Shown: in pieces, positions 1 through 64,000 of the stretch | Layout: the number at the start of each line of letters is the position of its first letter | Numbering within the stretch: position 1 is the stretch's first letter | Assembly: GCA_965178125.1 (NCBI GenBank) | Contig: OZ237758.1 | Location: forward strand, 372,001-436,000 | DNA length: 64,000 bases | Direction of reading: 5' to 3' | From: Bilabrum cf. latius | Taxonomy: Eukaryota | Made by a program: the position numbers and the translations under genes | Notes under the pieces: model-generated | The model's input: the letters and a program-made list of their open reading frames with translations, nothing else | Databases searched by the model: none | Told to the model about the DNA's origin: nothing

Positions 1-3000
1 CCCTCAGGTCGAAGCTCTTGGGCAGCTGCCTGGGGATGGTTGACTCAGTCTCCATGTCGCCAGAGTCTCGGCCATTCGCGAGGCTGCGGCTGCCCATCGC
101 ACCTGCGCCCACCGCGGCCGAGTCAACGCCTCTGCCACCTGGAATGCGCATGCCTGCCATGATGCCACCCAATCCACCAGCGTGCCCTCCATTGCTGCCG
201 CTGCCTCCCGCTGCGGTGGACATCCAGGCAGCCCTGCCAACGGGCGCCGAGGACCCCGCGTCTGTCACGCTCGTGGTGCTGACAAATGCGGCACCGACGT
301 GCGTGGACGCCCCGATGCTGCCTAGCGCGGACAGCCCGAGGACGTCGTCTGCTTTGCTGCCATGCACCGACAGCAACCCGTGATTAGGTGCCGGCTCCCG
401 CGCTGCTGAAGTCGGTCCGGGGGGCCACGAACCCGCAGCAGTCGCTGGTCCCGACTCGCTCTGGGCCGCAGCTCTGCCGCTGCGTGTGGACGGCACATCC
501 GCGCTGCCGACGCCAACTATCTCGCGGAAATTGGTCGAGCCTTGCGATGCGATAGACCCAGCCCTTCGCCTGCTCCCGCCCCCGCTCGCCACCGATCGGG
601 TGTCCAGCCCGAGCAGGATGGAATCCGTCCTGCGGAAGTCGTACGCCCCAGGGATACTGCCCACGCCCATGCTCCCCTCCGAGTCGGTGTCCAGGGAAGA
701 CGTCGACATGGCGAGGGGATCTAGTGCGCCGTCACCGCGATCCTGACCAAAGCCAGAAGCACGGGGTGCCGGAGGAATATTGCGACCAAGTGACCCGATT
801 GACCTCACCGACGCGCCGTCTGCGCCTTCTGAGCGTGCTCCTGACGACACGTGACGTCCCCGCCTGCCCCTGGCCACCTCGGTACCCTCATCCTCGTCCT
901 CATCATCATCCTCGTCCGATCCGCCCGCCGCACCGCTACCCCCCATTGACACCTGACCCGCAGAAGCATTGCGCTGGGTCGTGGGCTGCCCGTAAGGGGT
1001 GGAGCCCTCGGGCTCGTGCACGTCGTCGGTGCCTGCGTGCGCCGCGCCCGTAGGGCTGTCTGCAGGTCCGGGTGCCCCCGCCAGCAACCGGGTTGGCATC
1101 GCCGGGGTGTTCTCCTGCGTGTCGCTGCTGTGACTTCCTCTGCGCGCGGAATCCACGTGCGGGTCGTCGGGGCTGGGTCTGCTAAGTGCCGAGCCCGTTG
1201 GGTTGAGGAGCGAGTTGCTCGCGGCGAGCAGCCTTGCGAACATTGAGTCGCTCGTGTCCTTGGTGGAGCCGGCCTCCAGCACGGGAGACTGCACGCCCAG
1301 CCTGCCTCCTTTGGACCGCACCGAGCCGCCGTCATCCGCTAGCTCGATCCGCCCGAAGGACGAGTGCCATTCCCGCAGCCTGTGCAGCAGAGCCCCAAGG
1401 AGACCGGCCTCGCCCAGGTAAGCCGCCAGCTGCACTCCGTCCCAGCCCATGGCCTCCACCTCCAGTCCCGCCTTCCTCGCCCTGACCCTGAGGATGGATG
1501 CCGCGGTGTCTCCGCGCCCGCAAAGGAAGGCACGATGTGCTGCGGTCCTGCCGCGCCGGTCCTGCCTGGCCGGGTCAGCACCGCGCTCCATCAACCTGTC
1601 CACAGCCGCGTTGGCACCGCAGCTGGCGGCCAGCAACAGGGGTGTCGAGTACCGTATGCCGCATATCCTCGCAGCACGGCTGGCTGCAGGTACCAGCAAC
1701 GCATCGCTCAGCCTAGCTTCCTGCTCGTCGCTGATGCGGTCAGTGGCAGCCGACAGTATCCTGGACAGAGACACCTCGCCACTATCGCCCCCATCGTCGT
1801 CCCCGTAGGCATCATCGTCATTGCCACCACCCACACCGCCTCGCAAGGCGCCGTCACCAGCCCCTTGCTCCATGCTCCCGCTCCCGTACCCTGCCTCGGC
1901 CATGCTGCTCATGAACGCCAGCGCGGATGAAGACGGCCTCCCACTCGCACCGCCACCTGCACCACGGGACCCAGTCCCTACACTGGCCATTGGCTGTGGT
2001 CCTCTCGTTCGCTAGCCCGCCGGTGGGGGCAGGGAACTCTCATTCCCCAACTCATGCTCCTCGTCTCCTGACTCCATGGCTGCTCCTGCCCGGGCACGGG
2101 ACGCGGCTGGCGATCCTGTGCGAGCCCTACGTCCCTTGGGTGGTGGCTGCACCGACGCGCTCCCTGGAGCTAGCAGCCCCCGCACGTCCGTCCCAATGTC
2201 CATTCCCGTCATTTCCGCCGCTTCCGCCATGGAACCCTGGCCTTCCTGCGTCGGCGACGGTGGCGACATGCAGACGTCCACAGGGACACTCCGTCCTACG
2301 ATAGCCTCGCACATGGCTGGGTCATCGTTTGCGGCCGCTACGTGCAGGGGGCTAATGCCACGGTGTGACAGGCCCACGAGAAGGGCTCTAGCTAGATGCC
2401 CCGGGCATTCCAGCACTGACGAGAGGCTCTCGGACCCCGACACACTACCACCGCCGCTGCTGCTGCTGCTGCTCCCGCTTTCTGCTTCCCGCTGGCGCCG
2501 CTCTCGATTTCGATGCATGCTCATGGCTGCCTCCTGCGGCTCCAGGGCGCAAAAGGCAGCTGTGAGGACCGCTCGAAGACACGGGACTTGCTGGCATCCC
2601 GCGGCGCACCGCAGGGCTGCTCGCCACAAATCAGCGTCAGCAAGGGAAGCAGCGGTCGCTCGCCCTCGACCCTGACCCGGCTGCTGCGGCAGATCATCGT
2701 CGCTTAATCCTCCTAGGTCGGTATCTGGCGTGTCGCTGCTCGCACGCATACTCCCTAATAAACCCTGGTCGCCAATGTCCCAGCCTTGTGCTGCACCGCC
2801 AGACTAGCTCGACCTCGAACCGACCCTCGAAGATATCCCAGCATCATCCGAGGCATCGTGCGCCCTGTACACATCATCGATGTTGAATCTTTCTAATCCA
2901 GTTACTGTGGCAAACATGGATTCGCTTGCCTAGGCTTCGCCGATCCCATTCCCGGACGAGCAGGGGTATAGGTCCAATTTGGTACTGCCGCTGTTTTCGC

Positions 3001-3346
3001 TGCGTCCACCGGTTGGACGATACGGATTTGTCACTTCGCCTTGTGGCTAAGTGTTCATACTTGCTGCATCTGGTGGGTACAGTTGCATAGCTTGCCGCAA
3101 TAATCTGCGTCCAATGCCATCGAAGAGGCTGCCTGCCCCAACTGCAGCAGCCCCAAGGATGCAATTATCAGGGACCCCATGAACCAGTGCTGTGCTGCTC
3201 ATCATATCAATTACATTCTGCGTCGCTGAAAGGATTCGGTCAACCTCAGTCTCTTGTACAGCGGCAATAGCTCGTCGCAAGCGGGCGACAGAAATGCGAG
3301 GCTGTTGCAGGCCCTTCCTTCCAGCCGAAGGATAGCTGTCACTCAT
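1..3346 (-). CDS. Ankyrin-repeat protein with low-complexity regions (3' end runs off the window; TAG read as sense)
   Basis: One frame runs from ATG 3346 to the window edge with no TAA/TGA, only TAG at 3047, 2930, 2804 and 2012. Ankyrin-like motifs: GISPLHVAAANDDPAMCEAIV and YSTPLLLAASCGANAAVDRLMERGADPARQDRRGRTAAHRA. An in-frame TAA at 3386 bounds the 5' end. Confidence 0.75.
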
Positions 3347-3816
3347 GCCTAGCTCCTGTGAAAACTACCGCTTGAATGCGAAACCTTAATGCTTTCAGTT
3401 GTTTGACAAGTGTACTCTGGGTTGCCTCGCCGCATCTGAAACTGAGCAAGTATTCGGGTTTGTTGCGAGCTGTTTTCAGTTGCCGGCGCTCGCGTCGCTG
3501 GGTGGCCAAGAGTGGACTGCAGCTCGTCGGATATGGAAGTGTGTTCGATTTGGCTCATGCTGAAGGGTAATTTGAACACTTGCTTACCTATTTGTGAGTG
3601 TGGCTCTCGTTGGTTGCTGGCACGGGGCCACATCCAGCCCCGCCCATCACTGTCCACCCACTGGCAGGAACCACCGCTTTGTTCAGGCCAGGCAACGCTA
3701 CCAGGCAGCAGTCTTCACTGCCACACTCCATGGGGCTGATAGTAGGAGGCCATGAACGTACATGTGAGCTAAAAGCACAACTGATCTCAAACAACCGTCT
3801 GCCAATGATACAGTCC

Positions 3817-27652: not shown

Positions 27653-27737
27653 CAGTACCGGCACCCCACGTAGTGAATTGCATGAATGGAACAACACACT
27701 GCAAAGATGCCACGTGATGGCAGCGCATCTCATCTCA

Positions 27738-41398: not shown

Positions 41399-41520
41399 GG
41401 ATATCGGTGGTTGTGCGTCCCCCAAGTGGGGTCCCCCAAGACCTCTGGTCCCGAATCAACATTTCGGCCAGAACACTCACCAAGTATGTTGATTTTGTTT
41501 CCGTCTGGATTGGAGTCATA

Positions 41521-43662: not shown

Positions 43663-43829
43663 ACATCCCACAGGTCGAGAACCAGTAAACCCCAGATGGA
43701 TTAAGCCTGGTGCCCTGTCTCGCTCTACGCATTTGATCCCAGCGGTTGCGGCGTTCCAGAGTCTGGGTTCTAGTATCACGCAGAGCGGATGGGGAACACA
43801 TAGCTCATGCTCCACACGCATCTCCCCGC

Positions 43830-44144
43830 TCAGGCCGATCTGCCCTCCTCGACCTGCATCACCAGCTAGCAGCGTGGTCCCACCCCGTCGATGCAGTCGC
43901 TCTTCCTACCTCTCAGCCAGGCCATGTCGCGGTTCCGCCTCTCCGCAAAATACAGCAGGCTCACGCCCGTATCCGTGCCTCCGCCTGGGCTCATTTGATC
44001 GCCTGACGCGGCCTCCCCATCCGTTGGTGCCTGGTGGCTCTCGGGCTTAACTGGGCCCTCGCTATCACTGGCCCCCTCTTCCTTGCCGATCGCGGCCTCT
44101 TTTCCTCCACTGCCAGAACCAGGGGTGGCCTCCCTTACTTCCAT
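43830..44144 (-). other. 5'-truncated partner gene B
   Basis: Same breakpoint (ttccatgg|atatcggtgg) as 41084-41398. Confidence 0.7.
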
Positions 44145-44266
44145 GGATATCGGTGGCGGTGCGTCCCCCAAGTGGGGTCCCCCAAGACCTCTGGTCCCCA
44201 ATCAACATTTCGGCCAGAACACTCACCAAGTATGTTGATTTTGTTTCCGTCTGGATTGGTGTCATA

Positions 44267-46414: not shown

Positions 46415-46582
46415 ACATACCACTGGTCGAGAACCAGTATACCCCAGATGGATTAAGCCTGGTGCCCTGTCTCGCTCTACGCATTTGATCCCAGCTGTTG
46501 CGGCGTTCCAGAGTCTGGGTTCTAGTATCACGCAGAGCGGATGGGGGAACACATAGCTCATGCTCCACACGCATCTCCCCGC

Positions 46583-46897
46583 TCAGGCCGATCTGCCCTC
46601 CTCGACCTGCATCACCAGCTAGCAGCGTGGTCCCACCCCGTCGATGCAGTCGCTCTTCCTACCCCTCAGCCAGGCCATGTCGCGGTTCCGCCTCTCCGCA
46701 AAATACAGCAGGCTCACGCCCGTATCCGTGCCTCCGCCTGCGCTCATTTGATCGCCTGACGCGGCCTCCCCATCCGTTGGTGCCTGGTGGCTCTCGGGCT
46801 TAACTGGGCCCTCGCTATCACTGGCCCCCTCTTCCTTGCCGATCGCGGCCTCTTTTCCTCCACTGCCAGAACCAGGGGTGGCCTCCCTTACTTCCAT
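46583..46897 (-). other. 5'-truncated partner gene B
   Basis: Same breakpoint as the other short units. Confidence 0.7.
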
Positions 46898-47019
46898 GGA
46901 TATCGGTGGCGGTGCGTCCCCCAAGTGGGGTCCCCCAAGACCTCTGGCCCCCAATCAACATTTCGGCCAGAACACTCACCAAGTATGTTGATTTTGTTTC
47001 CGTCTGGATTGGTGTCATA

Positions 47020-49167: not shown

Positions 49168-49331
49168 ACATACCACAGGTCGAGAATCAGGATACCCCAG
49201 ATGGATTTAGCCTGGTGCCCTGTCTCGCTCTACGCATTTGATCCCAGCGGTTGCGGCGTTCCAGAGTCCGGGTTCTAGTATCACGCAGAGCGGATGGGAA
49301 CATAGCTCATGCTCCACACGCATCTCCCCGC

Positions 49332-49646
49332 TCAGGCCGATCTGCCCTCCTCGACCTGCATCACCAGCTAGCAGCGTGGTCCCACCCCGTCGATGCAGCC
49401 GCTCTTCCTACCCCTCAGCCAGGCCATGTCGCGGTTCCGCCTCTCCGCAAAATGCAGCAGGCTCACGCCCGTATCCGTGCCTCCGCCTGGGCTCATTTGA
49501 TCGCCTGACGCGGCCTCCCCATCCTTTGGTGCCTGGTGGCCCTCGGGCTTAACTGGGCCCTCGCTATCACTGGCCCCCTCTTCCTTGCCGATCGCGGCCT
49601 CTTTTTCACCACTGCCAGAGCCAGGGGTGACCTCCCTTACTTCCAT
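49332..49646 (-). other. 5'-truncated partner gene B
   Basis: Same breakpoint as the other short units. Confidence 0.7.
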
Positions 49647-49768
49647 GGATATCGGTGGCGGTGCGTCCCCCAAGTGGGGTCCCCCAAGACCTCTGGTCCC
49701 CAATCAACATTTCGGCCAGAACACTCACCAAGTATGTTGATTTTGTTTCCGTCCAGATTGGTGTCATA

Positions 49769-51910
49769 ATGGTATCCCTGTTCGACAGCCGCAGGCGGGA
49801 CGTTGAATGCCAGAAGACGGATGTCGCGGCCTTTGTCCGAGAGATGCTCCAAATCAGACAAGAACCAAGCCAAGTCACTGAATTGCGCGTATCGGGCGAC
49901 CTTTCTTCAAAGCCTGCCATGACTGCAGTTGTGGACCTGCTGGGCGCAAGCACCACCATGACCGGGCTACACCTGGATGGTACCTGCATCGGGACTGCAG
50001 GTGCGCATCAGATTGCAGCGAGCTTCACCGAGCTAGGAGATCGCCAGGCCCCGCTTCAATACCTGATCATGTCGCAGAATGCGAGGATCGATACGCCTGG
50101 CATTGTGGCGCTGGCACGGGCTGCCGCCTCCCATCCGACACTCGCAAGACTCAGCCTCTCTGACTGCAGAGTCGGAAACGAGGGCGCGAAAGCTCTTGCG
50201 CAAGCTTTGACAAGCTCCACTTCGCTGGTGTTGCTGGTGTTGCAGAAGTGCGGGATTCGCCGAAGTGGAGCCCTAGCTCTTGCAGCCAGCGTTGTGCAGA
50301 AGCCCGTGCAGTTTATCAACCTGTCCATGAACCCTATCGGCGACGATGCAGCTGCCGCTCTATTGGATGCGATCAGCACTTGCCCGGCTGTAGAGAGGGT
50401 AGTCTTGGATTTCGTGCATGGCGGCGACAAGATGGCAGTGTCGCTGGCACGGTGCTTGGGGCCGGACAGCAAGTGCAGGTTGAAAACAGTCAGCATCGAG
50501 AACAACAGCATCGGGCCTACTGGGATCGATGCGCTGTCCCACGCCATTGCTCGCAGTGACAGATTGTCAATCTTCGATTGCATGTGCGTCGTCCGAACCC
50601 TGCAGTCGTACAAGCAGCTGGAGGCCGCTGTGCAGGCCGTGAGACAGCGGCGGCAGCTGGTCGCAAAGACGACCTTCTTGCCAGACCAGGACGATAGATA
50701 CACTCGGAACGAGCTTGAGGGCTTCTCTTCCTGGCGCCAGCGGGCCATGGTGCTGCACCGGCGGGCACATGAGGCCAAGAGGGACGCCGGGCGGATGGGG
50801 CGGGCCGCGAAGGAGGGGAGGCCCCTGGAGCTGGGGAAGCGGGCGCGGCTGGGTGTGCTGGGCGGGGGTCTGGAGGTGATGGTGGGGGTGTGCGCGGACT
50901 GGTCGATGCAGAGTCGGCTGGGCGTGGCAGGGAGCGAGGTGCTGCAGTGCGATGCATTGTGCGCTGCCTGCTTGGGCGGCCACGCTGACTGTGTGGGAGT
51001 GCTGCTGGATGCAATGGATGGGGCATGTGGCATGCTCGGGGCATTGCGGGAGGGGGCGTGGGCGAGGATGGGCGGGGCAGGGGCTTTGTCAGGCTTCAGC
51101 TGCGTGGGCCTGTGCGCGAGGCTGGTGGGTGTGGATGGGTATGAGGGTGTGTGCTTGCGAGTGGGGGCTTGGGTGGGCAGAGTGCGCGGGTAGCTGGATG
51201 GGCTTGCGGGTGCCTGTGTGGGCGTGTGCGATCGTGCGGTGCAGCTGGAGCGGAGGAGGGACAGGCGTCGGGAGGCGATGGGGGCGGACGCGGCTGCCAA
51301 GGAGCAGGCGGAGCTTGACAAGCTCGAGACTGAGACAGCCGCGCATATGAAGGAGGGGGACGATGCGGTGGAGCTGTGGCAGACTATATGCAGCGGTTGC
51401 GACTACTGGTACTACAAGTGGGAGTAGGTCTTTAGTACGTATTGGGAATGGTCCGATCTGCAGGGCAAGCGGCTGCGTGCAGAGCAGGCCGAGGAAGGGG
51501 CGGACGAGGCCGTGCGTGAGGCGGTGCGTGTGTGGGAGGGCGTGCGGGGGGGGCTGGAGGGACTGAAGCGGGTGCTGGCGAGGCAGCGGGGCTCGGGTGC
51601 TGGGGGAGCAGTGGGATCGGCTGAGAGCGCTGTGGGGCTGGCCGAGTTGGTGCTGGGGAGGGGGAAGGGGGCTGGGCTGCTGGGTTGTGCGATGGAGGGG
51701 GTGGGGCGGCATGTGTCGGGCGAGGCGGTAGACTGGGGCCGCGTGTGGGATGAGGCCAAGGTGGACAGGTGGGCGGTGGGGGTGGATTCAGATGTGCAGG
51801 GGGTGGTGCGAGAGGTGATGGGTGGGATCAAGGCGGAGGGGGGAGGGCAGGACGATGGAAGCGATGAGAGCGATGGGGAGACGGGCTCTGAGCACAGTAC
51901 AAATAGCTGA
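49769..51910 (+). CDS. RI-type LRR protein A, copy 7
   Basis: Intact paralogue, two in-frame TAG, TGA stop. Confidence 0.85.
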
Positions 51911-52075
51911 ACATACCACAGGTCGAGAACCAGTATACCCCAAAAGGATTAAGCCTGGTGCCCTGTCTCGCTCTACGCATTTGATCCCAGCGGTTGCGGC
52001 GTTCCAGAGTCTGGGTTCTAGTATCACGCAGAGCAGATGGGGAACACAGCTCATGCTCCACACGCATCTCCCCGC

Positions 52076-53482
52076 TCAGGCCGATCTGCCCTCCTCGACC
52101 TGCATCACCAGCTAGCAGCGTGGTCCCACCCCGTCGATGCAGTCGCTCTTCCTACCCCTCAGCCAGGCCATGTCGCGGTTCCGCCTCTCCGCAAAATGCA
52201 GCAGGCTCACGCCCGTATCCATGCCTCCGCCTGCGCTCATTTGATCGCCTGACGCGGCCTCCCCATCCTTTGGTGCCTGTTGGCTCTCGGTTTTAACTGG
52301 GCCCTCGCTATCACTGGCCCCCTCTTCCTTGCCGATCGCGGCCTCTTTTCCCCCACTGCCAGAGCCAGGGGCGGCCTCCCTTTCTTCCATGGCCCTCGCT
52401 CCCCCTTGTGCTGCCCCGCCATCTTCGCCCGCGCCGGTCCCGCGTCTTGCCAAACGTGCAGGATTACCATTCAGTATCCCCTCAAGTGAGGACCATGTTC
52501 TCCCCTTATCGGACGCCAGTGGGTACATGCATGTCAGAGGCTCGCCCTCTGGATGCCACAAGCCAATCTCCACGAAGCACTGCTTGGGGAACGTAGATCT
52601 AGCAAGCGGGGTAAATAAAGCAGAGTCAGGAGGGCACGCTTGTATACCCAAAACTGCATTCACACCGTTAGTCACATCGATTGCTATTTTCTGCAATTCT
52701 TGAATCTGCCCAGAGCCATCCTCCAGCGGATCAGCTTTCCGGCCTGCTGCCGGTGGCATGACGAACTACTCACGAACTCCACTTTCCTCACTGGCAGCCC
52801 GCCATGGATACCCTGCCTCGTGTCGATCTTTGGGTCTGCCCATTTTGAGCAATTTGCCCAGTGGCACGGCATGTTTCAGACCGACACGCTTGTTGTAGGA
52901 TCTGACCTTGTCTAAGAACTTCTTGTAGGCTTTCGTTTCGCCCCTGACTAGCAGTGCATGATATGATGACTCAAGGTTTGCAATTGTCTTTGGTTTTGAG
53001 CCCGCTGTTCCTATTCCTGGTGACAAATCAACGTAGAGAGTTGCAGACAGTGGTTGCATCCAGATTTCCAGCAGCTCGCAGTCTGGACCAGGCAGAGTCA
53101 ATGAGAAATCTTGCACTATTTCATCGGCACGTCTCATCACTCCCGAATGCGCGTACTCCGCTACGATTTGAGACCCCGGCAAACACGAATATGCTAGCTC
53201 TCCACCAGAATCAGCGCCAGGCTTTCCTGATCGCTTTTCCTTCAGCTATTGTTGGCACTTTAAGGTCACTCTGTCGAATTTCTCGTCTTTGCCCACCTTC
53301 AGAGTGTAAGTCCAGTGTATGCCATCACCACTGCCAGCCGGTCCCGGACGTCGTGTTTTGATAACAAGAAGATACTTGTATACCACGCCGGAGAAGGTCA
53401 ATGCATTGGCCCCGTTGTGCCAAAAATGGCAATTCACAATCAAGAAACAGAATAAAAACGCGGTGCGCAGGGCAACCTACAT
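52076..53482 (-). CDS. Partner protein B, copy 3 (468 codons; 1 repeat)
   Basis: ORFs 53246-53443, 52766-53182 and 52112-52759 are joined by TAG. ATG at 53482, TGA at 52076. Confidence 0.75.
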
Positions 53483-53638
53483 CTGATTGGAAACTGAATT
53501 GTGCACTACCTGCCAGTGGTGTTGGTGGCGGTGCGTCCCCCAAGTGGGGTCCCCCAAGACCTCTGGTCCCCAATCAACATTTCGGCCAGAACACTCACCA
53601 AGTATGTTGATTTTGTTTCCGTCCAGATTGGTGTCATA

Positions 53639-55786
53639 ATGGTATCCCTGTTCGACAGCCGCAGGCGGGACGTTGAATGCCAGAAGACGGATGTCGCGGC
53701 CTTTGTCCGAGAGATGCTCCAAATCAGACAAGAACCAAGCCAAGTCACTGAATTGCGCGTATCGGGCGATCTTTCTTCAGAGCCTGCCATGACTGCAGTT
53801 GTGGACCTGCTGGGCGCAAGCACCACCGTGACCGGGCTACACCTGGATGGTACCTGCATCGGGACTGCAGGTGCGCATCAGATTGCAGCGAGCTTTGCCG
53901 AGCTAGGAGATCGCCAGGCCCCGCTTCAATACCTGATCATGTCGCAGAATGCGAGGATCGATACGCCTGGCATTGTGGCGCTGGCACGGGCAGCCGCCTC
54001 CCATCCGACACTCGCAAGTCTCAGCCTCTCTGACTGCAGAGTCGGAAACGAGGGCGCGAAAGCTCTTGCGCAAGCTTTGACAAGCTCCACTTCGCTGGTG
54101 TCGCTGGTGTTGCAGAAGTGCGGGATCCGCCGAAGTGGAGCCCTGGCTCTTGCAGCCAGCGTTGTGCAGAAGCCCGTGCAGTTTATCAACCTGTCCATGA
54201 ACCCTATCGGCGACGATGCAGCTGCCGCTCTATTGGATGCGATCAGCACTTGCCCGGCTGTAGATGTGGTAGTCTTGGATTGCGTGCGTGGCGGCGACAA
54301 GATGGCCGTGTCGCTGGCACGGTGCTTGGGGCCGGACAGCAAGTGCAGGTTGGACACAGTCATCATCGAGAACAACAGTATCGGGCCTACTGGGGTCGAT
54401 GCACTGTCCCACGCCATTGCTCGCAGTGACAGATTGTCACTCTTCGATTGCATGTGCGTCGTCCGAACCCTGCAGTCGTACAAGCAGCTGGAGGCCGCTG
54501 TGCAGGCCGTGAGACAGCGGCGGCAGCTGGTCGCGAGGACGACCTTCTTGCCAGACCAGGACGATAGATACACTCGGAACGAGCTTGAGGGCTTCTCTTC
54601 CTGGCGCCAGCGGGCCATGGTGCTGCACCGGCGGGCACACGAGGCTAAGAGGGACGCCGGGCGGATGGGGCGGGCCGCGAAGGACGGGAGGCCTCTGGAG
54701 CTGGGGAAGCGGGCGCGGCTGGGTGTGCTGGGCGGGGGTCTGGAGGTGATGGTGGGGGTGTGCGCGGACTGGTCGATGCAGAGTCGGCTGGGCGTGGCAG
54801 GGAGCGAGGTGCTGCAGTGCGATGCATTGTGCGCTGCCTGCTTGGGCGGCCACGCTGACTGTGTGGGAGTGCTGCTGGATGCAATGGATGGGGCATGTGG
54901 CATGCTCGGGGCATTGCGGGAGGGGGCGTGGGCGAGGATGGGCGGGGCAGGGGCTTTGTCAGGCTTCAGCTGCGTGGGCCTGTGCGCGAGGCTGGTGGGT
55001 GTGGATGGGTATGAGGGTGTGTGCTCGCGAGTGGGGGCTTGGGTGGGCAGAGTGCGCGGGTAGCTGGATGGGCTTGCGGATGCCTGTGTGGGCGTGTGCG
55101 ATCGTGCGGTGCAGCTGGAGCGGAGGAGGGACAGGCGTCGGGAGGCGATGGGGGCGGACGCGGCTGCCAAGGAGCAGGCGGAGCTTGACAAGCTCGAGAC
55201 TGAGACAGCCGCGCATATGAAGGAGGGGGACGATGCGGTGGAGCTGTGGCAGACTATATGCAGCGGTTGCGACTACTGGTACTACAAGTGGGAGTAGGTC
55301 TTTAGTACGTATTGGGAATGGTCCGATCTGCAGGGCAAGCGGCTGCGTGCAGAGCAGGCCGAGGAAGGGGCGGACGAGGCCGTGCGTGAGGCGGTGCGTG
55401 TGTGGGAGGGCGTGCGGGGGGGGCTGGAGGGACTGAAGCGGGTGCTGGCGAGGCAGCGGGGCTCGGGTGCTGGGGGAGCAGTGGGATCGGCTGAGAGCGC
55501 TGTGGGGCTGGCCGAGTTGGCGCTGGGGAGGGGGGAGGGGGCTGGGCTGCTGGGTTGTGCGATGGAGGGGGTGGGGCGGCATGTGTCGGGCGAGGCGGTA
55601 GACTGGGGCCGCGTGTGGGATGAGGCCAAGGTGGACAGGTGGGCGGTGGGGGTGGGGGTGGATTCAGATGTGCAGGGGGTGGTGCGAGAGGTGATGGGTG
55701 GGATCAAGGCGGAGGGGGGAGGGCAGGACGATGGAAGCGATGAGAGCGATGGGGAGACGGGCTCCGAGCACAGTACAAATAGCTGA
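53639..55786 (+). CDS. RI-type LRR protein A, copy 8
   Basis: Intact paralogue, two in-frame TAG, TGA stop. Confidence 0.85.
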
Positions 55787-55951
55787 ACATACCACAGGTC
55801 GAGAACCAGTATACCCCAGATGGATTCAGCCTGGTGCCCTGTCTCGCTCTACGCATTTGATCCCAGCGGTTGCGGCGTTCCAGAGTCTGGGTTCTAGTAT
55901 CACGCAGAGCGGAGGGAACACACAGCTCATGCTCCACACGCATCTCCCCGC

Positions 55952-56266
55952 TCAGGCCGACCTGCCCTCCTCGACCTGCATCACCAGCTAGCAGCGTGGT
56001 CCCACCCCGTCGATGCAGTCGCTCTTCCTACCTCTCAGCCAGGCCATGTCGCGGTTCCGCCTCTCCGCAAAATGCAGCAGGCTCACGCCCGTATCCATGC
56101 CTCCGCCTGGGCTCATTTGATCGCCTGACGCGGCCTCCCCATCCTGTGGTGCCTGTTGGCTCTCGGTTTTAAATGGGCCCTCGCTATCACTGGCCCCCTC
56201 TTCCTTGCCGATCGCGGCCTCTTTTTCCCCACTGCCAGAGCCAGGGGTGGCCTCCCCTACTTCCAT
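55952..56266 (-). other. 5'-truncated partner gene B
   Basis: Same breakpoint as the other short units. Confidence 0.7.
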
Positions 56267-56388
56267 GGATATCGGTGGCTGTGCGTCCCCCAAGTGGGGT
56301 CCCCCAAGACCTCTGGTCCCCAATCAACATTTCGGCCAGAACACTCACCAAGTATGTTGATTTTGTTTCCGTCTGGATCGGTGTCATA

Positions 56389-58530
56389 ATGGTATCCCTG
56401 TTCGACAGCCGCAGGCGGGACGTTGAATGCCAGAAGACGGATGTCGCGGCCTTTGTCCGAGAGATGCTCCAAATCAGACAAGAACCAAGCCAAGTCACTG
56501 AATTGCGCGTATCGGGCGATCTTTCTTCAAAGCCTGCCATGACTGCAGTTGTGGACCTGCTGGGCGCAAGCACCACCGTGACCGGGCTACACCTGGATGG
56601 TACCTGCATCGGGACTGCAGGTGCGCATCAGATTGCAGCGAGCTTTGCCGAGCTAGGAGATCGCCAGGCCCCGCTTCAATACCTGATCATGTCGCAGAAT
56701 GCGAGGATCGATACGCCTGGCATTGTGGCGCTGGCACGAGCAGCCGCCTCCCATCCGACACTCGCAAGACTCAGCCTCTCTGACTGCAGAGTCGGAAACG
56801 AGGGCGCGAAAGCTCTTGCGCAAGCATTGACAAGCTCCACTTCGCTGGTGTCGCTGGTGTTGCAGAAGTGCGGGATCCGCCGAAGTGGAGCCCTGGCTCT
56901 TGCAGCCAGCGTTGTGCAGAAGCCCGTCCAGTTTATCAACCTGTCCATGAACCCTATCGGCGACGATGCAGCTGCCGCTCTATTGGATGCGATCAGCACT
57001 TGCCCGGCTGTAGATGTGGTAGCCTTGCGTTGCGTACGTGGCGGCGACAAGATGGCCGTGTCGCTGGCACGGTGCTTGGGGCCGGACAGCAAGTGCAGGT
57101 TGGACACAGTCGTCATCGAGAACAACAGCATCGGGCCTACTGGGATCGATGCACTGTCCCACGCCATTGCTCGCAGCGACAGATTGTCAATCTTCGATTG
57201 CATGTGCGTCGTCCGAACCCTGCAGTCGTACAAGCAGCTGGAGGCCGCTGTGCAGGCCGTGAGACAGCGGCGGCAGCTGGTCGCAAAGACGACCTTCTTG
57301 CCAGACCAGGACGATAGATACACTCGGAACGAGCTTGAGGGCTTCTCTTCCTGGCGCCAGCGGGCCATGGTGCTGCACCGGCGGGCACATGAGGCCAAGA
57401 GGGACGCCGGGCGGATGGGGCGGGCCGCGAAGGAGGGGAGGCCTCTGGAGCTGGGGAAGCGGGCGCGGCTGGGTGTGCTGGGCGGGGGTCTGGACATGAT
57501 GGTGGGGGTGTGCGCGGACTGGTCGATACAGAGTCGGCTGGGCGTGGCAGGGAGCGAGGTGCTGCAGTGCGATGCACTGTGCGCTGCCTGCTTGGGCGGC
57601 CACGCTGACTGTGTGGGAGTGCTGCTGGATGCAATGGATGGGGCATGTGGCATGCTCGGGGCATTGCGGGAGGGGGCATGGGCGAGGATGGGCGGGGCAG
57701 GGGCTTTGTCAGGCTTCAGCTGCGTGGGCCTGTGCGCGAGGCTGGTGGGTGTGGATGGGTATGAGGGTGTGTGCTTGCGAGTGGGGGCTTGGATGGGCAG
57801 AGTGCGCGGGTAGCTGGATGGGCTTGCGGGTGCCTGTGTGGGCGTGTGCGATCGTGCGGTGCAGCTGGAGCGGAGGAGGGACAGGCGTCGGGAGGCGATG
57901 GGGGCGGACGCGGCTGCCAAGGAGCAGGCGGAGCTTGACAAGCTCGAGACTGAGACAGCCGCGCATATGAAGGAGGGGGACGATGCGGTGGAGCTGTGGC
58001 AGACTATATGCAGCGGTTGCGACTACTGGTACTACAAGTGGGAGTAGGTCTTTAGTACGTATTGGGAATGGTCCGATCTGCAGGGCAAGCGGCTGCGTGC
58101 AGAGCAGGCCGAGGAAGGGGCGGACGAGGCCGTGCGTGAGGCGGTGCGTGTGTGGGAGGGCGTGCGGGGGGGGCTGGAGGGACTGAAGCGGGTGCTGGCG
58201 AGGCAGCGGGGCTCGGGTGCTGGGGGAGCAGTGGGTTCGGCTGAGAGCGCTGTGGGGCTGGCCGAGTTGGCGCTGGGGAGGGGGAAGGGGGCTGGGCTGC
58301 TGGGTTGTGCAATGGAAGGGGTGGGGCGGCATGTGTCGGGCGAGGCGGTAGACTGGGGCCGCGTGTGGGATGAGGCCAAGGTGGACAGGTGGGCGGTGGG
58401 GGTGGATTCAGATGTGCAGGGGGTGGTGCGAGAGGTGATGGGTGGGATCAAGGCGGAGGGGGGAGGGCAGGACAATGGAAGCGATGAGAGCGATGGGGAG
58501 ACGGGCTCTGAGCACAGTACAGATAGCTGA
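56389..58530 (+). CDS. RI-type LRR protein A, copy 9
   Basis: Intact paralogue, two in-frame TAG, TGA stop. Confidence 0.85.
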
Positions 58531-58698
58531 ACATACCACAGGTCGAGAACCAGGATACCCCAAAAGGATTAAGCCTGGTGCCCTGTCTCGCTCTACGCAT
58601 TTGATCCTAGCTGTTGCGGCGTTCCAGAGTCTGGGTTCTAGTATCACGCAGAGCGGATGGGGGAACACACAGCTCATGCTCCACACGCATCTCCCCGC

Positions 58699-59013
58699 TC
58701 AAGCCGACCTGCCCTCCTCGACCTGCATCACCAGCTAGCAGCGTGGTCCCACCCCGTCGATGCAGCCGCTCTTCCTACCTCTCAGCCAGGCCATGTCGCG
58801 GTTCCGCCTCTCCGCAAAATGCAGCAGGCTCACGCCCGTATCCATGCCTCCGCCTGGGCTCATTTGATCGCCTGACGCGGCCTCCCCATCCTGTGGTGCC
58901 TGTTGGCTCTCGGTTTTAACTGGGCCCTCGCTATCACTGGCCCCCTCTTCCTTGCCGATCGCGGCCTCTTTTTCCCCACTGCCAGAGCCAGGGGTGGCCT
59001 CCCTTACTTCCAT
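58699..59013 (-). other. 5'-truncated partner gene B
   Basis: Same breakpoint as the other short units. Confidence 0.7.
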
Positions 59014-59135
59014 GGATATCGGTGGCTGTGCGTCCCCCAAGTGGGGTCCCCCAAGACCTCTGGTCCCCAATCAACATTTCGGCCAGAACACTCACCAAGT
59101 ATGTTGATTTTGTTTCCGTCTGGATTGGAGTCATA

Positions 59136-61283
59136 ATGGTATCCCTGTTCGACAGCCGCAGGCGGGACGTTGAATGCCAGAAGACGGATGTCGCGGCCTT
59201 TGTCCGAGAGATGCTCCAAATCAGACAAGAACCAAGCCAAGTCACTGAATTGCGCGTATCGGGCGATCTTTCTTCAGAGCCTGCCATGACTGCAGTTGTG
59301 GACCTGCTGGGCGCAAGCACCACCGTGACCGGGCTACACCTGGATGGTACCTGCATCGGGACTGCAGGTGCGCATCAGATTGCAGCGAGCTTTGCCGAGC
59401 TAGGAGATCGCCAGGCCCCGCTTCAATACCTGATCATGTCGCAGAATGCGAGGATCGATACGCCTGGCATTGTGGCGCTGGCACGAGCAGCCGCCTCCCA
59501 TCCGACACTCGCAAGTCTCTACCTCTGTGACTGCAGAGTCGGAAACGAGGGCGCGAAAGCTCTTGCGCAAGCATTGACAAGCTCCACTTCGCTGGTGTCG
59601 CTGGTGTTGCAGAAGTGCGGGATCCGCCGAAGTGGAGCCCTGGCTCTTGCAGCCAGCGTTGTGCAGAAGCCCGTCCAGTTTATCAACCTGTCCATGAACC
59701 CTATCGGCGACGATGCAGCTGCCGCTCTATTGGATGCGATCAGCACTTGCCCGGCTGTAGATGTGGTAGCCTTGCGTTGCGTACGTGGCGGCGACAAGAT
59801 GGCCGTGTCGCTGGCACGGTGCTTGGGGCCGGACAGCAAGTGCAGGTTGAAAACAGTCAGCATCGAGAACAACTGCATCGGGCCTACTGGGATCGATGCA
59901 CTGTCCCACGCCATTGCTCGCAGCGACAGATTGTCGCGCCTCTATGGCATGTGCGTCGTCCGAACCCTGCAGTCGTACAAGCAGCTGGAGGCCGCTGTGC
60001 AGGCCGTGAGACAGCGGCGGCAGCTGGTCGCAAAGACGACCTTCTTGCCAGACCAGGACGATAGATACACTCGGAACGAGCTTGAGGGCTTCTCTTCCTG
60101 GCGCCAGCGGGCCATGGTGCTGCATCGGCGGGCACACGAGGCCAAGAGGGACGCCGGGCGGATGGGGCGGGCCGCGAAGGAGGGGAGGCCCCTGGAGCTG
60201 GGGAAGCGGGCGCGGCTGGGTGTGCTGGGCGGGGGTCTGGAGGTGATGGTGGGGGTGTGCGCGGACTGGTCGATGCAGAGTCGGCTGGGCGTGGCAGGGA
60301 GCGAGGTGCTGCAGTGCGATGCACTGTGCGCTGCCTGCTTGGGCGGCCACGCTGACTGTGTGGGAGTGCTGCTTGATGCAATGGATGGGGCATGCGGCAT
60401 GCTCGGGGCATTGCGGGAGGGGGCATGGGCGAGGATGGGCGGGGCAGGGGCTTTGTCAGGCTTCAGCTGCGTGGGCCTGTGCGCGAGGCTGGTGGGTGTG
60501 GATGGGTATGAGGATGTGTGCTTGCGAGTGGGGGCTTGGGTGGGCAGAGTGCGCGGGTAGCTGGATGGTCTTGCGGATGCCTGTGTGGGCGTGTGCGATC
60601 GTGCGGTGCAGCTGGAGCGGAGGAGGGACAGGCGTCGGGAGGCGATGGGGGCGGACGCGGCTGCCAAGGAGCAGGCGGAGCTTGACAAGCTCGAGACTGA
60701 GACAGCCGCGCATATGAAGGAGGGGGACGATGCGGTGGAGCTGTGGCAGACTATATGCAGCGGTTGCGACTACTGGTACTACAAGTGGGAGTAGGTCTTT
60801 AGTACGTATTGGGAATGGTCCGATCTGCAGGGCAAGCGGCTGCGTGCAGAGCAGGCCGAGGAAGGGGCGGACGAGGCCGTGCGTGAGGCGGTGCGTGTGT
60901 GGGAGGGCGTGCGGGGGGGGCTGGAGGGACTGAAGCGGGTGCTGGCGAGGCAGCGGGGCTCGGGTGCTGGGGGAGCAGTGGGATCGGCTGAGAGCGCTGT
61001 GGGGCTGGCCGAGTTGGCGCTGGGGAGGGGGAAGGGGGCTGGGCTGCTGGGTTGTGCGATGGAGGGGGTGGGGCGGCATGTGTCGGGCGAGGCGGTAGAC
61101 TGGGGCCGCGTGTGGGATGAGGCCAAGGTGGACAGGTGGGCGGTGGGGGTGGGGGTGGATTCAGATGTGCAGGGGGTGGTGCGAGAGGTGATGGGTGGGA
61201 TCAAGGCGGAGGGGGGAGGGCAGGACAATGGAAGCGATGAGAGCGATGGGGAGACGGGCTCCGAGCACAGTACAGATAGTTGA
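59136..61283 (+). CDS. RI-type LRR protein A, copy 10 (last in array, unique 3' flank)
   Basis: Intact paralogue, two in-frame TAG, TGA stop. Sequence after 61283 no longer matches the array spacer. Confidence 0.85.
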
Positions 61284-61434: not shown

Positions 61435-63108
61435 TCAAAAATCACCGTCCACTCTCCCCCCGTTTCGCACGTCTTCGATGTCCTCCCTCGAAAGCAAGTG
61501 CTTCTGCTCCAAATCGGCCGGATCCAGGCCAGACCCTTCCTCCGCCGGGACCTCCCCGTTCAGCTCCGCCAGCACCTGCGTGACCGACTTGTTCTTCGTC
61601 TCCGGTACGAATATGAGAATAAACACAAAGGTCAGCCCGAGGATCACGGCGAAGGGCAAGAAACTGTAGGCTCCCAGAGCGGACTGCATGGGAAGGAACC
61701 CCAGCCCGACCGCCAGGTTGGCCAACCAGTTGCACAGCGCGCCGAAAGACATGGCGGTAGCACGGGGCTTGCTGGGGAACAAGTCGCTCCCGATCATCCA
61801 CGGGATGGCCCCGAGCCCGATCTCAAATCCCGTGACAAAGACGAGCACCATGGCGATCGCGAGCCAGTTGAGCGACTCTACCGCGCTGCCCTTGGCGTCC
61901 TCTTTCGTGATGAGGAAGACGGTGAGAAGCACCTGGGAGACGAGCATGCTCCCCGCGCCGATGATCAGAAGGATCCTTCGTCCGCACGACTCGATCATCA
62001 CCACGGCCAGCACGGTCGCCAGCGCGTTCACCACCGAGGCCAACAGCGAACCTGACACTGCCGCCACGCCCGCCTTCTGGAACGTGTCCGAGGAGTAGTA
62101 GAAGACCACGTTGATGCCAGACAGCTGCTGCGCGATGGTCAGAACCAGCATGATGGTGAGACTCCGCCGCAGCCGCTGGTCTCCCAGGACCTGCCACAGG
62201 CTGGGTGCCTCCTCGTCCTGCCCCTGGGCGGCCTCCCGCTGCAGCTGCTCCAGCTCCCTGGAGATTTTGTTCCCTGCGCCCGGTGCTGTGGTGTCTCTGA
62301 GCTGCTGCAGGCTCTTCTGGGCCTCTTGCTGGCGGCCCTGGGCGAGGAGATACCTGGGGGACTCCGGCATCATGAGACATAGCGCCACCTGCACGCCGCC
62401 GAGCACCGCGCTGATGAGCAGCAGGATGGGCCAGTTGGTCGCGTAGGGCGAGGCGCCGCTCGGGAGGTTCTTCTGGAGCTGGGTGCCAGGGTCCACCGTG
62501 ACGGCGAGGTAAAGGAGCTGGCTCGCCACGATGCCGATAACCACGGCGAACTACGCAAGCGTGCCGAACGTTCCGCGCATATGCTGGGGGGCAATTTCGC
62601 CCAAATACAGGGGTCCGATCACGCTGGCTCCGCCGGAGCCGAAACCCGACAAGAATCGGCCCACAGCCAAAAGACCGTAACCGACGGGTCCCCGCAGTCC
62701 CTTCTATCCAGCCATAAACTAAAGCACGCCCTGCAAGACGAACACGACACCCGACCACACGAGCCAGCTTCGCCGGCCCAGCGCGTCGGCAATGTATCCA
62801 CCGGACTACGCTCCGACCATACCGCCTAGCGTAAACATCGACACAATCACGGACCAAAGCACTACGTGATCACCGTAATCGTCCATTTTAAGATCGCTTA
62901 TCACCGAGTTTTCGGGCAAGTTAAGCACTCCCGTGTGCCACCCGAACTGGAACCCGCCAAACAAGCTCAGGCCTGCGACCACGTACAACCACCCACTAGG
63001 CACCGGCTAGTTCGTGACATTAGAATTCTACTTGGATTCATCCTATCCATTGATAGTATCAAACCCTCTCTGATCTACCAATGGGGCTGTTGCACTTTCA
63101 CGCTCCAT
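61435..63108 (-). CDS. MFS sugar porter, GLUT/SLC2A-like (557 aa; 7 in-frame TAG)
   Basis: Motifs GGFQFGWHTGVLN, DALGRR, YLGEIAPQHMRGTFGTLA(TAG)F, PESPRYL, QQLSGINVVFYYS, GLGAIPW and VPETKNKS. TAG at 63043, 63028, 63007, 62806, 62719, 62704 and 62551; TGA stop. Confidence 0.92.
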
Positions 63109-63386
63109 TGGCTTTGTTCGAAGCTGCCTGGCGCGAATGATGACCTATGTACGCTCAAATAAGCAGTAGATGCAGCTACAAGCCCAATTTAAACCAGAAG
63201 TGCGTGAGACACTCCAGGACAAACGAAGAACTACTGCTATGGCCGCGTCGACTGGTCGCCGTGGATCCTTCGCAAAGTGTACGCTACATTAATAATAATA
63301 CCGTAGATGCATTGCACGGTCAAGCAGGCAGGTTGCCGAACACTTTAAATTGCTGCAGATCACTCTTCGGTAGAGTTTTTGGTTTG

Positions 63387-64000
63387 ATGTCGTCTGGTTA
63401 TTTGTTGAAAAATGCTCGTTTGTACGAGTTTTCTGCCGTAAATCTGTGTAAAGTGCCTCCATGGCTGATTTCACGATCACAGTAGGTCGCCAGGAGACAT
63501 GGTAGCTCTCTGCAGTCGCACAGGCGGACTAATTCGGCTGTCAGGCTCCAGTCTGTGCTTGATATGAGGCATGCGCACCATGAATGCGCTCGTCCTGTTT
63601 CGACTACCGCGACAGAGGCATCTCTCCGGCAGTCTACAAGACCCATGCAGACAACGACCCCATTGGACGATGGCAGCGAGAGCGAGTGGCCGTTGAGCGA
63701 TTCAGATTCAGTACCAGCTCTACAACATGGCGGCACGCACAGAGATGGTTCGAAATTTGAAAGTGCAGCTTCAGTGGAGCCATCGGATGATCTGTCGGAC
63801 ATGACGGACTGGATAGCTGCGGCGCAAGAGAATGCATCCCTCGATGAGTAGCACAGCTCTGCGGGAGATGTGCGCAGATCCGACACAGTCGATACAAGCT
63901 CCGGCTGGCTGCTCGCTCCCAGGGATGACGCCATTCGCATGCAGACAGGCAAGACCGCCGAGGAAGCCTATGGCAAGGCAGCCGTACGCTTCCGAAGGGC
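63387..64000 (+). CDS. Hypothetical protein, 5' part only (start uncertain)
   Basis: The frame is open from 63147 to the window end except for TAG at 63483 and 63849. Candidate ATGs at 63147, 63387 and 63564. Confidence 0.45.

Follow-up and report, generated by a model that had tools for sequence, protein, structure and literature searches.

Changes in the nuclear genetic code are rare. The code in which UAG specifies glutamine corresponds formally to NCBI translation table 15. A split in meaning between UAG and UAA is rarer still, being limited to a handful of nuclear lineages (PMC5304391; PMC11687900). In the fornicate Iotanema spirale, UAG is read as glutamine while UAA and UGA serve as stops (PMC5304391), and glutamine has likewise been assigned to UAG, but not to UAA, in the ciliate Protocruzia tuzeti and two phyllopharyngean ciliate lineages (PMC11687900). 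UAG alone has been reassigned to leucine in the rhizarian exLh (PMC5304391) and to serine in Scotinosphaera (cited in PMC11687900). Recoding of TAG to glutamine is also described for crAss-like and other gut phages (PMC9523058).

The window examined in this work (i.e., the whole stretch of 64,000 nucleotides) has a GC content of ~60%, is dense in genes and contains few introns. It very probably represents nuclear DNA in which glutamine has UAG as a third codon in addition to CAG and CAA, UGA serves as the working stop, and UAA is not a sense codon, most likely still terminates, and is rarely used. As in Iotanema spirale, UAG alone has become a glutamine codon without reassignment of UAA, and the tRNA-Gln (CUA) and altered eRF1 that are predicted for that organism would fit here as well. 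However, Iotanema is an anaerobic metamonad that is reported to have UAA as its primary stop codon (PMC5304391), whereas in the GC-rich window UGA ends every well-supported gene and UAA is rare. Moreover, one gene of the window specifies a 2,4-dienoyl-CoA reductase of mitochondrial type that is extended at its N terminus, and this gives no hint of an anaerobe of that kind. P. tuzeti and the phyllopharyngean ciliates share the codon assignment, but neither gene content nor architecture looks ciliate-like here, given the GC content of 60%, the ~22 kb contig of the source run that contains this stretch, the tandem LRR array and, for two proteins, best matches among named sequences that are metazoan; this contrast as a whole is only an impression. 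The exLh and Scotinosphaera codes similarly decouple UAG from UAA, but the amino acid differs, as Leu was found at none, and Ser at only one, of the 13 partner positions considered below. Lastly, the gut phages recode the same codon to the same residue, but there the code is switched during infection (PMC9523058), whereas the window is cellular eukaryotic DNA with eukaryotic gene families and an inferred intron of spliceosomal type. A table-15-like code is already known in a few lineages, of which the organism studied here is probably another member. The suggestion of the first-pass annotation that this is a rare reassignment of that kind is borne out with regard to UAG as glutamine, UAA as non-sense and UGA as a stop, whereas termination at UAA is only inferred.

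The seven homology-supported coding sequences of the window contain 20 in-frame TAG, no TAA and no internal TGA in 4,551 codons; in their two off-frames TAA occurs 14/16, TAG 42/24 and TGA 77/82 times. The gene for a GLUT-type sugar porter (61435..63111, minus strand), recognized by its translation and the Pfam domain Sugar_tr, is intronless, ends in TGA and carries, after the ATG at 63111, seven TAGs (63045-63043, 63030-63028, 63009-63007, 62808-62806, 62721-62719, 62706-62704, and 62553-62551). The match to Sugar_tr (PF00083; 8.6e-105) extends over profile positions 6-447 of 452 and spans four of these codons, and in comparisons with solved structures (best GLUT4, 5.9e-69, and GLUT3, 3.6e-68) no gap is present at the TAG. 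In the MaoC-like dehydratase gene (27167..27652, plus strand, TGA end), the MaoC_dehydratas match (3.8e-20; residues 45-142) runs across a TAG at 27518-27520. The earlier claim that frame and domain continue past the TAGs is therefore supported by uninterrupted Pfam matches in both proteins, and the positions that had been given for MaoC, RGTFGTLA-TAG-F (62553-62551) and GVL-TAG-F (62721-62719) are accurate.

Other TAGs are located close to the ends of genes. The PAP2-family phosphatase gene (27738..29024, minus strand; Pfam PAP2, 1.1e-13) has a TAG at 27758-27756, five codons before its TGA, and the EF-hand gene (29781..30350, minus strand), whose 5' limit is an upstream in-frame stop and whose start codon is not fixed, has one at 29798-29796, four codons before TGA. 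The exiting helix of the EF-hand requires residues beyond the TAG, and where TAGs lie 4–9 codons ahead of the TGA the tails beyond them are conserved in sequence or length, as seen for PAP2 and for the MaoC protein of the relative described below. A STRA6-like gene (21074..25639, plus strand; 1,521 codons, TGA end) also contains seven in-frame TAGs, all outside the stretch matched by RBP_receptor (5.4e-16; residues 1043-1133), and an ankyrin-repeat gene (2..3346, minus strand), the 3' end of which lies beyond the window, has four after its first ATG. These numbers, and those of one each in MaoC, PAP2 and EF-hand, two in each LRR ORF and four to five in the partner ORFs, agree with the initial counts. 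The accompanying statement that nearly every gene is split by TAG holds for the genes then listed, but the 2,4-dienoyl-CoA reductase gene of the SDR family (25975..26997, minus strand, TGA end; adh_short_C2, 2.3e-42), whose homologs P0124 and P0125 are 98% and 88% identical to it, has none.

By means of this reductase gene, relatives of the window were retrieved, including a syntenic metagenomic one (contigs L001 and L002) with ~74% nucleotide identity. Three orthologs in L001, which share 65-83% amino acid identity with those of the window, contain 11 in-frame TAG but no TAA or TGA in 934 codons, with TAA present 6/7 times in their off-frames. For both species together, the in-frame counts are 31 TAG, 0 TAA, and 0 TGA in 5,485 codons. 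The trait is therefore shared by at least one other species. The proposal that TAG is a sense codon is sustained by whole Pfam domains, homolog alignments that are free of gaps at TAG sites, conserved C-terminal tails and the same habit in the relative; UAG is read through both within conserved domains and near C-termini.

TGA, and never TAA, closes all eight of the complete genes with homology support, and the PAP2 orthologs of the window and L001 terminate at the same aligned position; UGA terminates. The status of UAA is less direct. TAA is scarce everywhere, occurring 169/171 times on the two strands of the window (TAG, 479/428; TGA, 804/713), and the raw observation that it is never exonic is insufficient, although this claim does hold after frame and codon-ratio tests. 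In the window, CAA:CAG is 35:117 whereas TAA:TAG in the same ORFs is 0:21; the corresponding ratios for L001 are 8:12 and 0:12. From the CAA/CAG ratio ~14 TAA are expected and none is observed (Poisson P of zero ~6e-7). On these statistical grounds there is good support for excluding TAA from the sense codons.

An alternative that deserves consideration, although we regard it as improbable, is that UAA and UAG both specify glutamine, UAA being rare because of GC richness and UGA being the only stop. Such a code (NCBI table 6) is used by many ciliates, hexamitin diplomonads and some ulvophyte algae. The ending of all eight genes in TGA and none in TAA is in accordance with it, as is the fact that, of the three triplets, TAA is overall the least frequent; additionally, the sole TAA "stops" lie at the end of an LRR ORF that lacks a clear coding signature in its 3' half. 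UAG would specify glutamine under table 6 also, but the shortfall of TAA (0, vs. 33 TAG and a CAA:CAG ratio of 43:129 in the same ORFs) is difficult to reconcile with it, particularly as the lower-GC L001 uses CAA freely (8 vs. 12 CAG) and yet has no TAA against 12 TAG, and as TAA does occur in the off-frames of the same genes in both species. Furthermore, the in-frame TAA of the EF-hand gene lies in a 93 nt GT-AG intron (30112-30020, minus strand), inferred from the sequence without RNA, whose removal joins ...GAC TCC AAT CAT G to AT GGA AAG... and restores the canonical loop DSNHDGKISLAE, which is broken in the unspliced form.

Evidence that TAA is an active terminator is confined to a set of 10 LRR (RNI-like) genes arranged in tandem (30549..61283, plus strand), which are 98-100% alike, spaced at 2,746-2,753 bp or 3,870-4,277 bp, and have two in-frame TAGs in each ORF. 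At a single alignment column, copies 1, 2, and 5 have TAA (ending at 32702, 36973, and 46414) and copies 3, 4, and 6-10 have TGA (ending at 40915, 43662, 49167, 51910, 55786, 58530, and 61283), exactly the alternation that had been reported. Past this codon the sequence looks non-coding, and a second in-frame TAA alternates there with TTA and TCA; the exchange of TAA for TGA among ten paralogues, followed by such sequence, also speaks against table 6. However, the differences between copies fall preferentially on third codon positions within the LRR half (4, 1, 8 and 2, 0, 10-11 for the three positions), whereas no such bias is clear for the 3' half, whose end bears the exchange and which lacks a clear coding signature, and the true coding 3' end is consequently not proven. 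Of the original statement that TAA and TGA both terminate, the part concerning TGA is thus secure (8/8 ends, no internal occurrence and the PAP2 orthologs), whereas termination at TAA is only inferred, with the alternation in the LRR paralogues as its sole basis.

A context-dependent code of the Condylostoma or karyorelict type, in which a codon may act as stop or sense, was also considered and rejected: TAGs situated 4–9 codons before TGA are read through (PAP2, L001 MaoC, EF-hand), and none of the eight complete homology-supported genes ends in TAG, although this is a small sample.

As judged from comparisons of the sequences, glutamine is almost certainly the meaning of TAG and has the best support of any residue. 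When orthologs from the window and L001 are paired, 13 TAG sites can be compared, and the residue opposite TAG is Gln in five cases, Gly in three and Phe, Ser, Ala, Cys, and Arg in one each. Against a background of 40 Gln in 1,838 aligned residue sides (2.2%), the binomial probability of 5/13 is ~7e-6, and for sites with flank identity of at least 60% the proportion is 5/10. The commonest non-identical partner of Gln is TAG (five, vs. three each for Lys and Glu), and two of the five Gln partners are encoded by CAA, which is two mutational steps away from TAG. The MaoC ortholog of L001 alone has five TAGs, four of which are opposite Gln codons of the window (CAG three times, CAA once). No TAG site is common to the two species, as is expected if TAG interchanges freely as a synonymous codon. 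In PAP2, the window tail GYL-TAG-LPGRF corresponds to GYLQLPGRF in a 95%-identical ortholog (P0244), which has Gln at the TAG, and to RYLGLQGRY in L001, which has Gly. Lastly, the sugar-porter TAG at 62553-62551 is opposite the Gln of GTLNQL in GLUT3 and GLUT4, and opposite Gln in 11 of 11 homologs and in 119 of 120 of a larger GLUT-type set, which confirms the earlier assertion that this position of the RGxxGTLxQ motif is a conserved glutamine. A parallel argument from a GxxLQ pattern for the TAG at 62719 is not supported, since this column is occupied by Met in 117 of the 120 homologs and by Gln only in the closest of them (P0005). The ortholog partners, P0244 and the near-invariant column together sustain the initial identification of TAG as most likely glutamine, although the test rests upon 13 + 1 + 4 usable sites rather than a genome-wide inference, and the sugar-porter homologs are mostly redundant insect isoforms, so that the 120 counts are not independent.

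Several columns do not favour glutamine, and it may be asked whether UAG has another meaning (the known options being Leu, Ser, Glu, Tyr, Trp, and Lys) or is ambiguous. Only five of the 13 ortholog partners are Gln, the other eight being divided as listed above; three sugar-porter columns are mainly hydrophobic in distant homologs (Phe in 117/120, Met in 117/120, and Leu/Ile/Val); and at a highly conserved column of the reductase, where L001 has TAG and the window AGG (Arg) between identical flanks, homologs show Lys (100/118) or Arg (17/118). Among 113 distant homologs of MaoC, the columns concerned vary and are polar in character, Gln being present in 20/108, 6/112, and 15/113 where listed. 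TAG also alternates with other codons in sequences whose coding status is unproven. One set consists of the partner ORFs (copy 1 at 32871..34766, minus strand; copies 2 and 3 at 37140-38708 and 52076-53776), which end in TGA, contain four to five in-frame TAGs and have no Pfam match or proven start; four TAGs are present in all three copies, and at one TAG of copy 1 the other two copies have TGG. The other is a region of 204-bp repeats (~6.5-9.7 kb and 14.1-17.3 kb), where TAG alternates with TCG or TTG but which has three open frames and provides no coding evidence. However, no residue other than Gln exceeds 3/13, the three Gly are near expectation (10.7% of aligned residues), and Glu, Tyr, Trp, and Lys, like Leu, are never found as partners. 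In view also of the near-invariant Gln column and the Gln of the 95%-identical PAP2 ortholog, little room is left for a different residue.

The notion that the standard code applies, with the TAGs arising from errors of sequencing or assembly, from lesions in pseudogenes, from short introns or from sites of U to C editing (to CAG) in mRNA, draws some support from the one inferred intron and from the absence of any run recorded as RNA, by which editing is not formally excluded, but it is scarcely tenable, as all seven sugar-porter TAGs are identical in four runs from three studies, frames are broken by TAG alone unlike with random lesions, single codons correspond without insertion at the TAGs, which are therefore not introns, and a second species has its TAGs elsewhere in the same strongly conserved genes. 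The check for assembly error rests upon contigs of runs X5, X6, and X7, which come from two studies different from the one that produced the likely source run, X1, and which span the seven TAGs with no differences, gaps or joints. The contigs of X5 and X6 are about gene-sized and end near the gene ends, which is at most a weak hint of UAG-bearing transcripts, the library type being a guess.

To account for UAG as glutamine, we envisage that the window is nuclear DNA from a GC-rich (~60%), gene-dense and intron-poor eukaryote, in which UAG would be read as an ordinary glutamine codon alongside CAG and CAA, UGA would be the working stop, and UAA, while not sense, would most likely remain a seldom used terminator. 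Decoding may be carried out by a tRNA-Gln with the anticodon CUA, pairing with UAG and not UAA, and the N-terminal domain of eRF1 is predicted to be blind to UAG while still recognizing UGA and presumably UAA; both components are inferred from known codes of this type (PMC5304391). Neither the window nor L001-L003 yielded a tRNA gene, and the eRF1 gene is not within the window. With no run recorded as RNA and no proteomic data, the presence of UAG in mature mRNA and of glutamine in protein is inferred and not demonstrated.

It is possible, though we advance this only tentatively, that the reassignment arose independently in an unrecognized, non-ciliate, aerobic clade with compact GC-rich genomes and an effectively UGA-only stop, comprising at least two species and a strain-level relative of 95-98% identity. 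UAA would then have been nearly abandoned and UAG captured for glutamine, and the origin of the code under GC rather than AT pressure would be at odds with the route by which UAR codons are usually captured. Our literature search found no published report fitting this case. Both the sugar porter and the reductase have their best matches, among named sequences, in metazoans, and the window also holds a STRA6-like gene, based upon which the clade could be a unicellular relative of animals, but a single-gene tree gave no placement of the organism.

A further high-GC, nearly UGA-only lineage, together with its relative, would provide one more independent case in which to study the co-evolution of release-factor specificity and suppressor tRNAs, and would bear on whether compositional pressure drives code change. 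For this organism and its relatives, annotation by the standard code is wrong, and gene calling in metagenomes will detect too few genes of the clade and mis-size them. Public protein collections already hold fragments cut at these TAGs: P0125 begins directly after the TAG of the L001 SDR gene, P0245 begins after one TAG of the L001 PAP2 gene and ends at another, and P0246 stops at residue 117, just ahead of the MaoC TAG of the window. With two species that differ in TAG usage, it also becomes possible to measure directly how a codon spreads after recent capture, TAG accounting for ~12% of the glutamine-type codons in the window and ~35% in L001.

The window is compact eukaryotic DNA of about 60% GC, in which the genes are mostly uninterrupted and lie 86–340 bp apart, and the fragments into which many of its reading frames appear to be divided merge into full-length genes once TAG is counted as a residue. 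The genes recognized by homology comprise an ankyrin-repeat gene (2–3346, minus strand), a STRA6-like gene (21074–25639, plus), a mitochondrial-type 2,4-dienoyl-CoA reductase (25975–26997, minus), a MaoC-like dehydratase (27167–27652, plus), a PAP2 phosphatase (27738–29024, minus), a small EF-hand gene (about 29781–30350, minus), an RNI-type LRR gene in 10 tandem copies (30549–61283, plus) and a GLUT-type sugar porter (61435–63111, minus). The match of the sugar porter to Pfam Sugar_tr (8.6e-105) extends over profile positions 6–447 of 452 and spans four TAGs, the Pfam MaoC domain crosses the TAG of its gene, and the reductase gene contains no TAG. Within seven coding sequences of the window (4,551 codons) there are 20 in-frame TAGs and no TAA or TGA, and the two off-frames of the same DNA contain 42 and 24 TAG, 14 and 16 TAA, and 77 and 82 TGA. 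As TGA is the commonest and TAA the rarest of the three stop-type triplets in the window, the lack of in-frame TGA is strong on its face, and the lack of in-frame TAA required a separate test. The coordinates and per-gene TAG counts of the first-pass annotation proved correct when rechecked by translation and codon counting, and its proposal that TAG is a sense codon, which we now regard as next to certain, is borne out by the frame counts, the unbroken Pfam domains and the related species described below. The partner ORFs (of an unknown family) and the 204-bp repeats, where coding is unproven and where alternations of TAG with TGG, TCG and TTG are seen, were excluded from this evidence.

A search of public collections with the reductase sequence identified near-identical and 87%-identical proteins, and a search of metagenomes identified two overlapping contigs, L001 and L002, from a related organism. 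L001 (54% GC) is syntenic with the window over the PAP2, MaoC and reductase genes, with a nucleotide identity of about 74%. Its three genes (934 codons) contain 11 in-frame TAGs and no TAA or TGA, and all three terminate with TGA. The three window/L001 ortholog pairs contain 13 TAG sites, each of which has TAG in one species only, indicating that TAG has been gained and lost like any synonymous codon. By our own arithmetic, TAG makes up about 35% of the TAG, CAG and CAA codons of these orthologous genes in L001, and its share in the window (60% GC) is about 12%. It was also observed that the predicted proteins from this clade in public collections (P0124, P0125, P0245, and P0246) are fragments bounded by TAG codons: the reductase homolog P0125 starts directly after a TAG of the L001 reductase, the PAP2 relative P0245 starts past one TAG of the L001 PAP2 gene and stops at another, and P0246, from a 95%-identical relative, stops at residue 117, one residue short of the TAG in the MaoC gene of the window. 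Standard-code gene calling thus mis-annotates organisms of this clade. In L002 (1348–2780, minus), the ortholog of the STRA6-like gene is found in pieces in different frames and seems much shorter than the 1,521-codon gene of the window; this could be due to introns, a different structure or sequencing errors, and these pieces were left out of the codon-by-codon comparison with the TAG sites of the window.

Assembly error as the source of the TAGs is opposed by contigs from four sequencing runs, viz. X1 (near-identical to the window and its probable source), X5, X6, and X7, the last three of which belong to two studies other than that of X1. In the sugar-porter region, these contigs show no differences, gaps or joints, and all seven TAGs of this gene are covered in each of them. 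The X5 and X6 contigs (1,771 and 1,683 nt, respectively) are of about gene length and stop near the gene ends, which is at most a weak hint of an mRNA origin; none of the runs is listed as RNA, the library type of X5–X7 (RNA) is only guessed, X5 is flagged as probably DNA, and these runs were used for sequence identity only. Since an intron is inferred in the window, the idea that the TAGs are hidden within them had to be checked, and it is excluded by single-codon, gap-free alignments.

The only intron that we recognized is in the EF-hand gene, the other genes being read as single exons. In this gene, a TAA separates two ORFs that share one reading frame, and a 93-nt GT-AG intron (30112–30020, minus; beginning with GTGAG and ending in CAG), also in frame, is inferred at this point. 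Its excision joins ...FMDSNH to DGKISLAEF..., and the canonical 12-residue calcium-binding loop so formed closely resembles the second loop of this gene, DSNHDGNITVDE. Both the intron and its splicing are inferences from the genomic sequence, under which the sole in-frame TAA near a coding region would be removed rather than read.

TAG does not double as a stop. In three cases (PAP2, the MaoC gene of L001 and the EF-hand gene) a TAG is located 4–9 codons upstream of the TGA stop. Two other taxa conserve the five residues that follow the PAP2 TAG and end at the same position, the tail beyond the TAG of the L001 MaoC gene is equal in length to that in the window, and the exiting helix of the EF-hand protein needs residues beyond the TAG. 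Of the eight complete genes that are supported by homology, none terminates with TAG.

With regard to the amino acid specified, the residues opposite TAG at the 13 sites in the three ortholog pairs were Gln (5), Gly (3) and one each of Phe, Ser, Ala, Cys, and Arg. Gln makes up only 2.2% of the aligned residues, and its occurrence at five of these sites represents an approximately 17-fold excess (binomial P ~7e-6, our arithmetic); the three Gly residues are near expectation from a background of 10.7%. Leu, Glu, Tyr, Trp, and Lys were not found opposite any of the 13 TAGs and Ser was found once, and no other amino acid approaches Gln as the meaning of this codon. Conversely, where Gln is not matched by itself, its most frequent partner is TAG (5, vs. 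3 each for Lys and Glu). Because Gln itself is only 50% conserved between the two species, the finding of Gln opposite five of the 10 TAG sites in well-aligned context is what is expected of a Gln codon. CAA, which is two mutational steps away from TAG, encodes two of these five Gln residues. Additionally, P0244, a 95%-identical PAP2 ortholog, contains GYLQLPGRF where the window reads GYL-TAG-LPGRF; the PAP2 homolog search found only two proteins, both close relatives, and no column statistics are given.

The sugar-porter TAG at 62553–62551 is matched by Gln in all 11 selected homologs and in 119 of 120 homologs, many of which are redundant insect isoforms. It aligns with the Q of GTLNQL in the solved structures of GLUT3 and GLUT4, a position which we take to be that of the sugar-binding residue Gln161 of GLUT1. 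At three other TAG columns of this protein, distant homologs carry Phe, Met or Leu/Ile/Val, and Gln occurs at one of these three hydrophobic columns in P0005, the closest homolog. One TAG of the L001 reductase falls in a Lys/Arg column with flanks identical to those in the window. The MaoC columns, which were examined in 113 of the 149 homologs retrieved (length ≤260 residues, distant homologs), are variable, polar and only mildly enriched in Gln, and they are not decisive. The N-terminal TAGs of the sugar porter were not used, as the alignment to the N-termini of its homologs (columns 752–764) was not meaningful. The assignment of TAG to Gln in the first-pass annotation is thus upheld by the ortholog partners, the Q of P0244 and the conserved GLUT column, and we consider it very likely to be correct. 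Just past the TAG-encoded Gln, the sugar porter also contains an insertion of about 15 residues (within DPGTQLQKNLPSGASPYATN; 62460–62530, minus; residues about 254–277 of P0001), which is absent from all aligned GLUT-type homologs.

The status of TAA was examined in the same ORFs, in which the CAA:CAG ratio is 35:117 in the window and 8:12 in L001 and the corresponding TAA:TAG ratios are 0:21 and 0:12. The sharper test is provided by L001, since its GC content is lower and codons ending in A are freely used. If TAA were used for Gln in the manner of CAA, about 14 would be expected; the observation of none (Poisson P(0) ~6e-7, our arithmetic) indicates that TAA is not a sense codon, a conclusion in which we have high confidence. 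That TAA and TGA both terminate had been claimed from their alternation at the end of the LRR ORF. For TGA this stands, as every well-supported gene terminates with it, and the alternation itself is confirmed: in a single column, TAA is the terminal codon of copies 1, 2, and 5, and the seven remaining copies have TGA there. Downstream of this codon, a second in-frame TAA alternates with TTA and TCA, and the sequence past the terminal codon therefore behaves as non-coding. However, an excess of third-position differences among the copies is clear in the LRR half of the ORF alone; the 3' half has differences by codon position of 5, 11–13, and 13–15 without a clear excess, and hence the true 3' end of the LRR coding sequence is unproven. 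As this alternation is the sole positive evidence, the role of TAA as an active stop is less certain, and we regard it only as probable. The antisense ORFs of 630 aa in the LRR region appear to be artefacts of GC-rich sequence.

By analogy with known UAG-only codes, UAG would be read by a tRNA-Gln with the anticodon CUA, and eRF1 would have lost affinity for UAG and retained recognition of UGA; neither the tRNA nor eRF1 has been examined. A single anticodon change separates this tRNA from tRNA-Gln(CUG), and it cannot pair with UAA (PMC5304391). A tRNA scan detected no tRNA genes in the window or in L001, L002 and a further metagenome contig, L003. UAG is reported to encode Gln with UAA unreassigned in Iotanema spirale (PMC5304391) and in Protocruzia tuzeti and two phyllopharyngean ciliate lineages (PMC11687900), and other reported UAG-only changes are to Leu in a rhizarian and to Ser in Scotinosphaera (PMC5304391, PMC11687900). 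In contrast to Iotanema, the window encodes a mitochondrial-type enzyme of fatty-acid oxidation, which makes it unlikely that the organism is Iotanema. It is also not ciliate-like in appearance, although its lineage is unplaced. A literature search found no report matching the code of this organism, with supplements and many journals outside its scope. The code itself is of a known type, to which this lineage is probably a new addition; interest is added by its high GC content and by an almost exclusive reliance on UGA for termination.

An Rfam scan found no family matches in the window, and hence no rRNA for placement. A maximum-likelihood analysis of the reductase was based on 32 rows (the window, L001, and 9 named and 21 unnamed homologs picked from 120 listed). 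The resulting tree isolates the window and L001 sequences on a long branch (length 1.06), without a supported sister group, and a Protein Atlas look-up of this protein gave family-level matches only. The closest sugar-porter homolog, P0005, is a transcriptome entry; searches for other relatives of this protein found only bacterial homologs (25–31% identity) in genome contigs and none in viral contigs. The best named homologs of two window proteins are metazoan and a STRA6-like gene is also present, which is no more than a lead.

The LRR copies are 98–100% alike, and three of the intervals in their array are widened by copies of the partner ORF, which is located on the opposite (minus) strand and is recognized as an ORF only. 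It carries a variable GSGSGGKEAAP repeat: copy 1 contains about 20 units, and copies 2 and 3 contain few. A segmental duplication (4444–11075 and 12035–18666, spacing 7,591 bp) was also observed, the two segments having identical ORF sets and 300-nt reference copies that are 100% alike. Each segment contains an array of 204–206-bp tandem repeats (about 6535–9705 and 14126–17296), open in three minus-strand frames and with no Pfam match of note. Lastly, the GC skew of the plus strand (4-kb windows) is persistently positive, 0.10–0.27, over 36001–64000 across the LRR array, and near zero over 4–28 kb.
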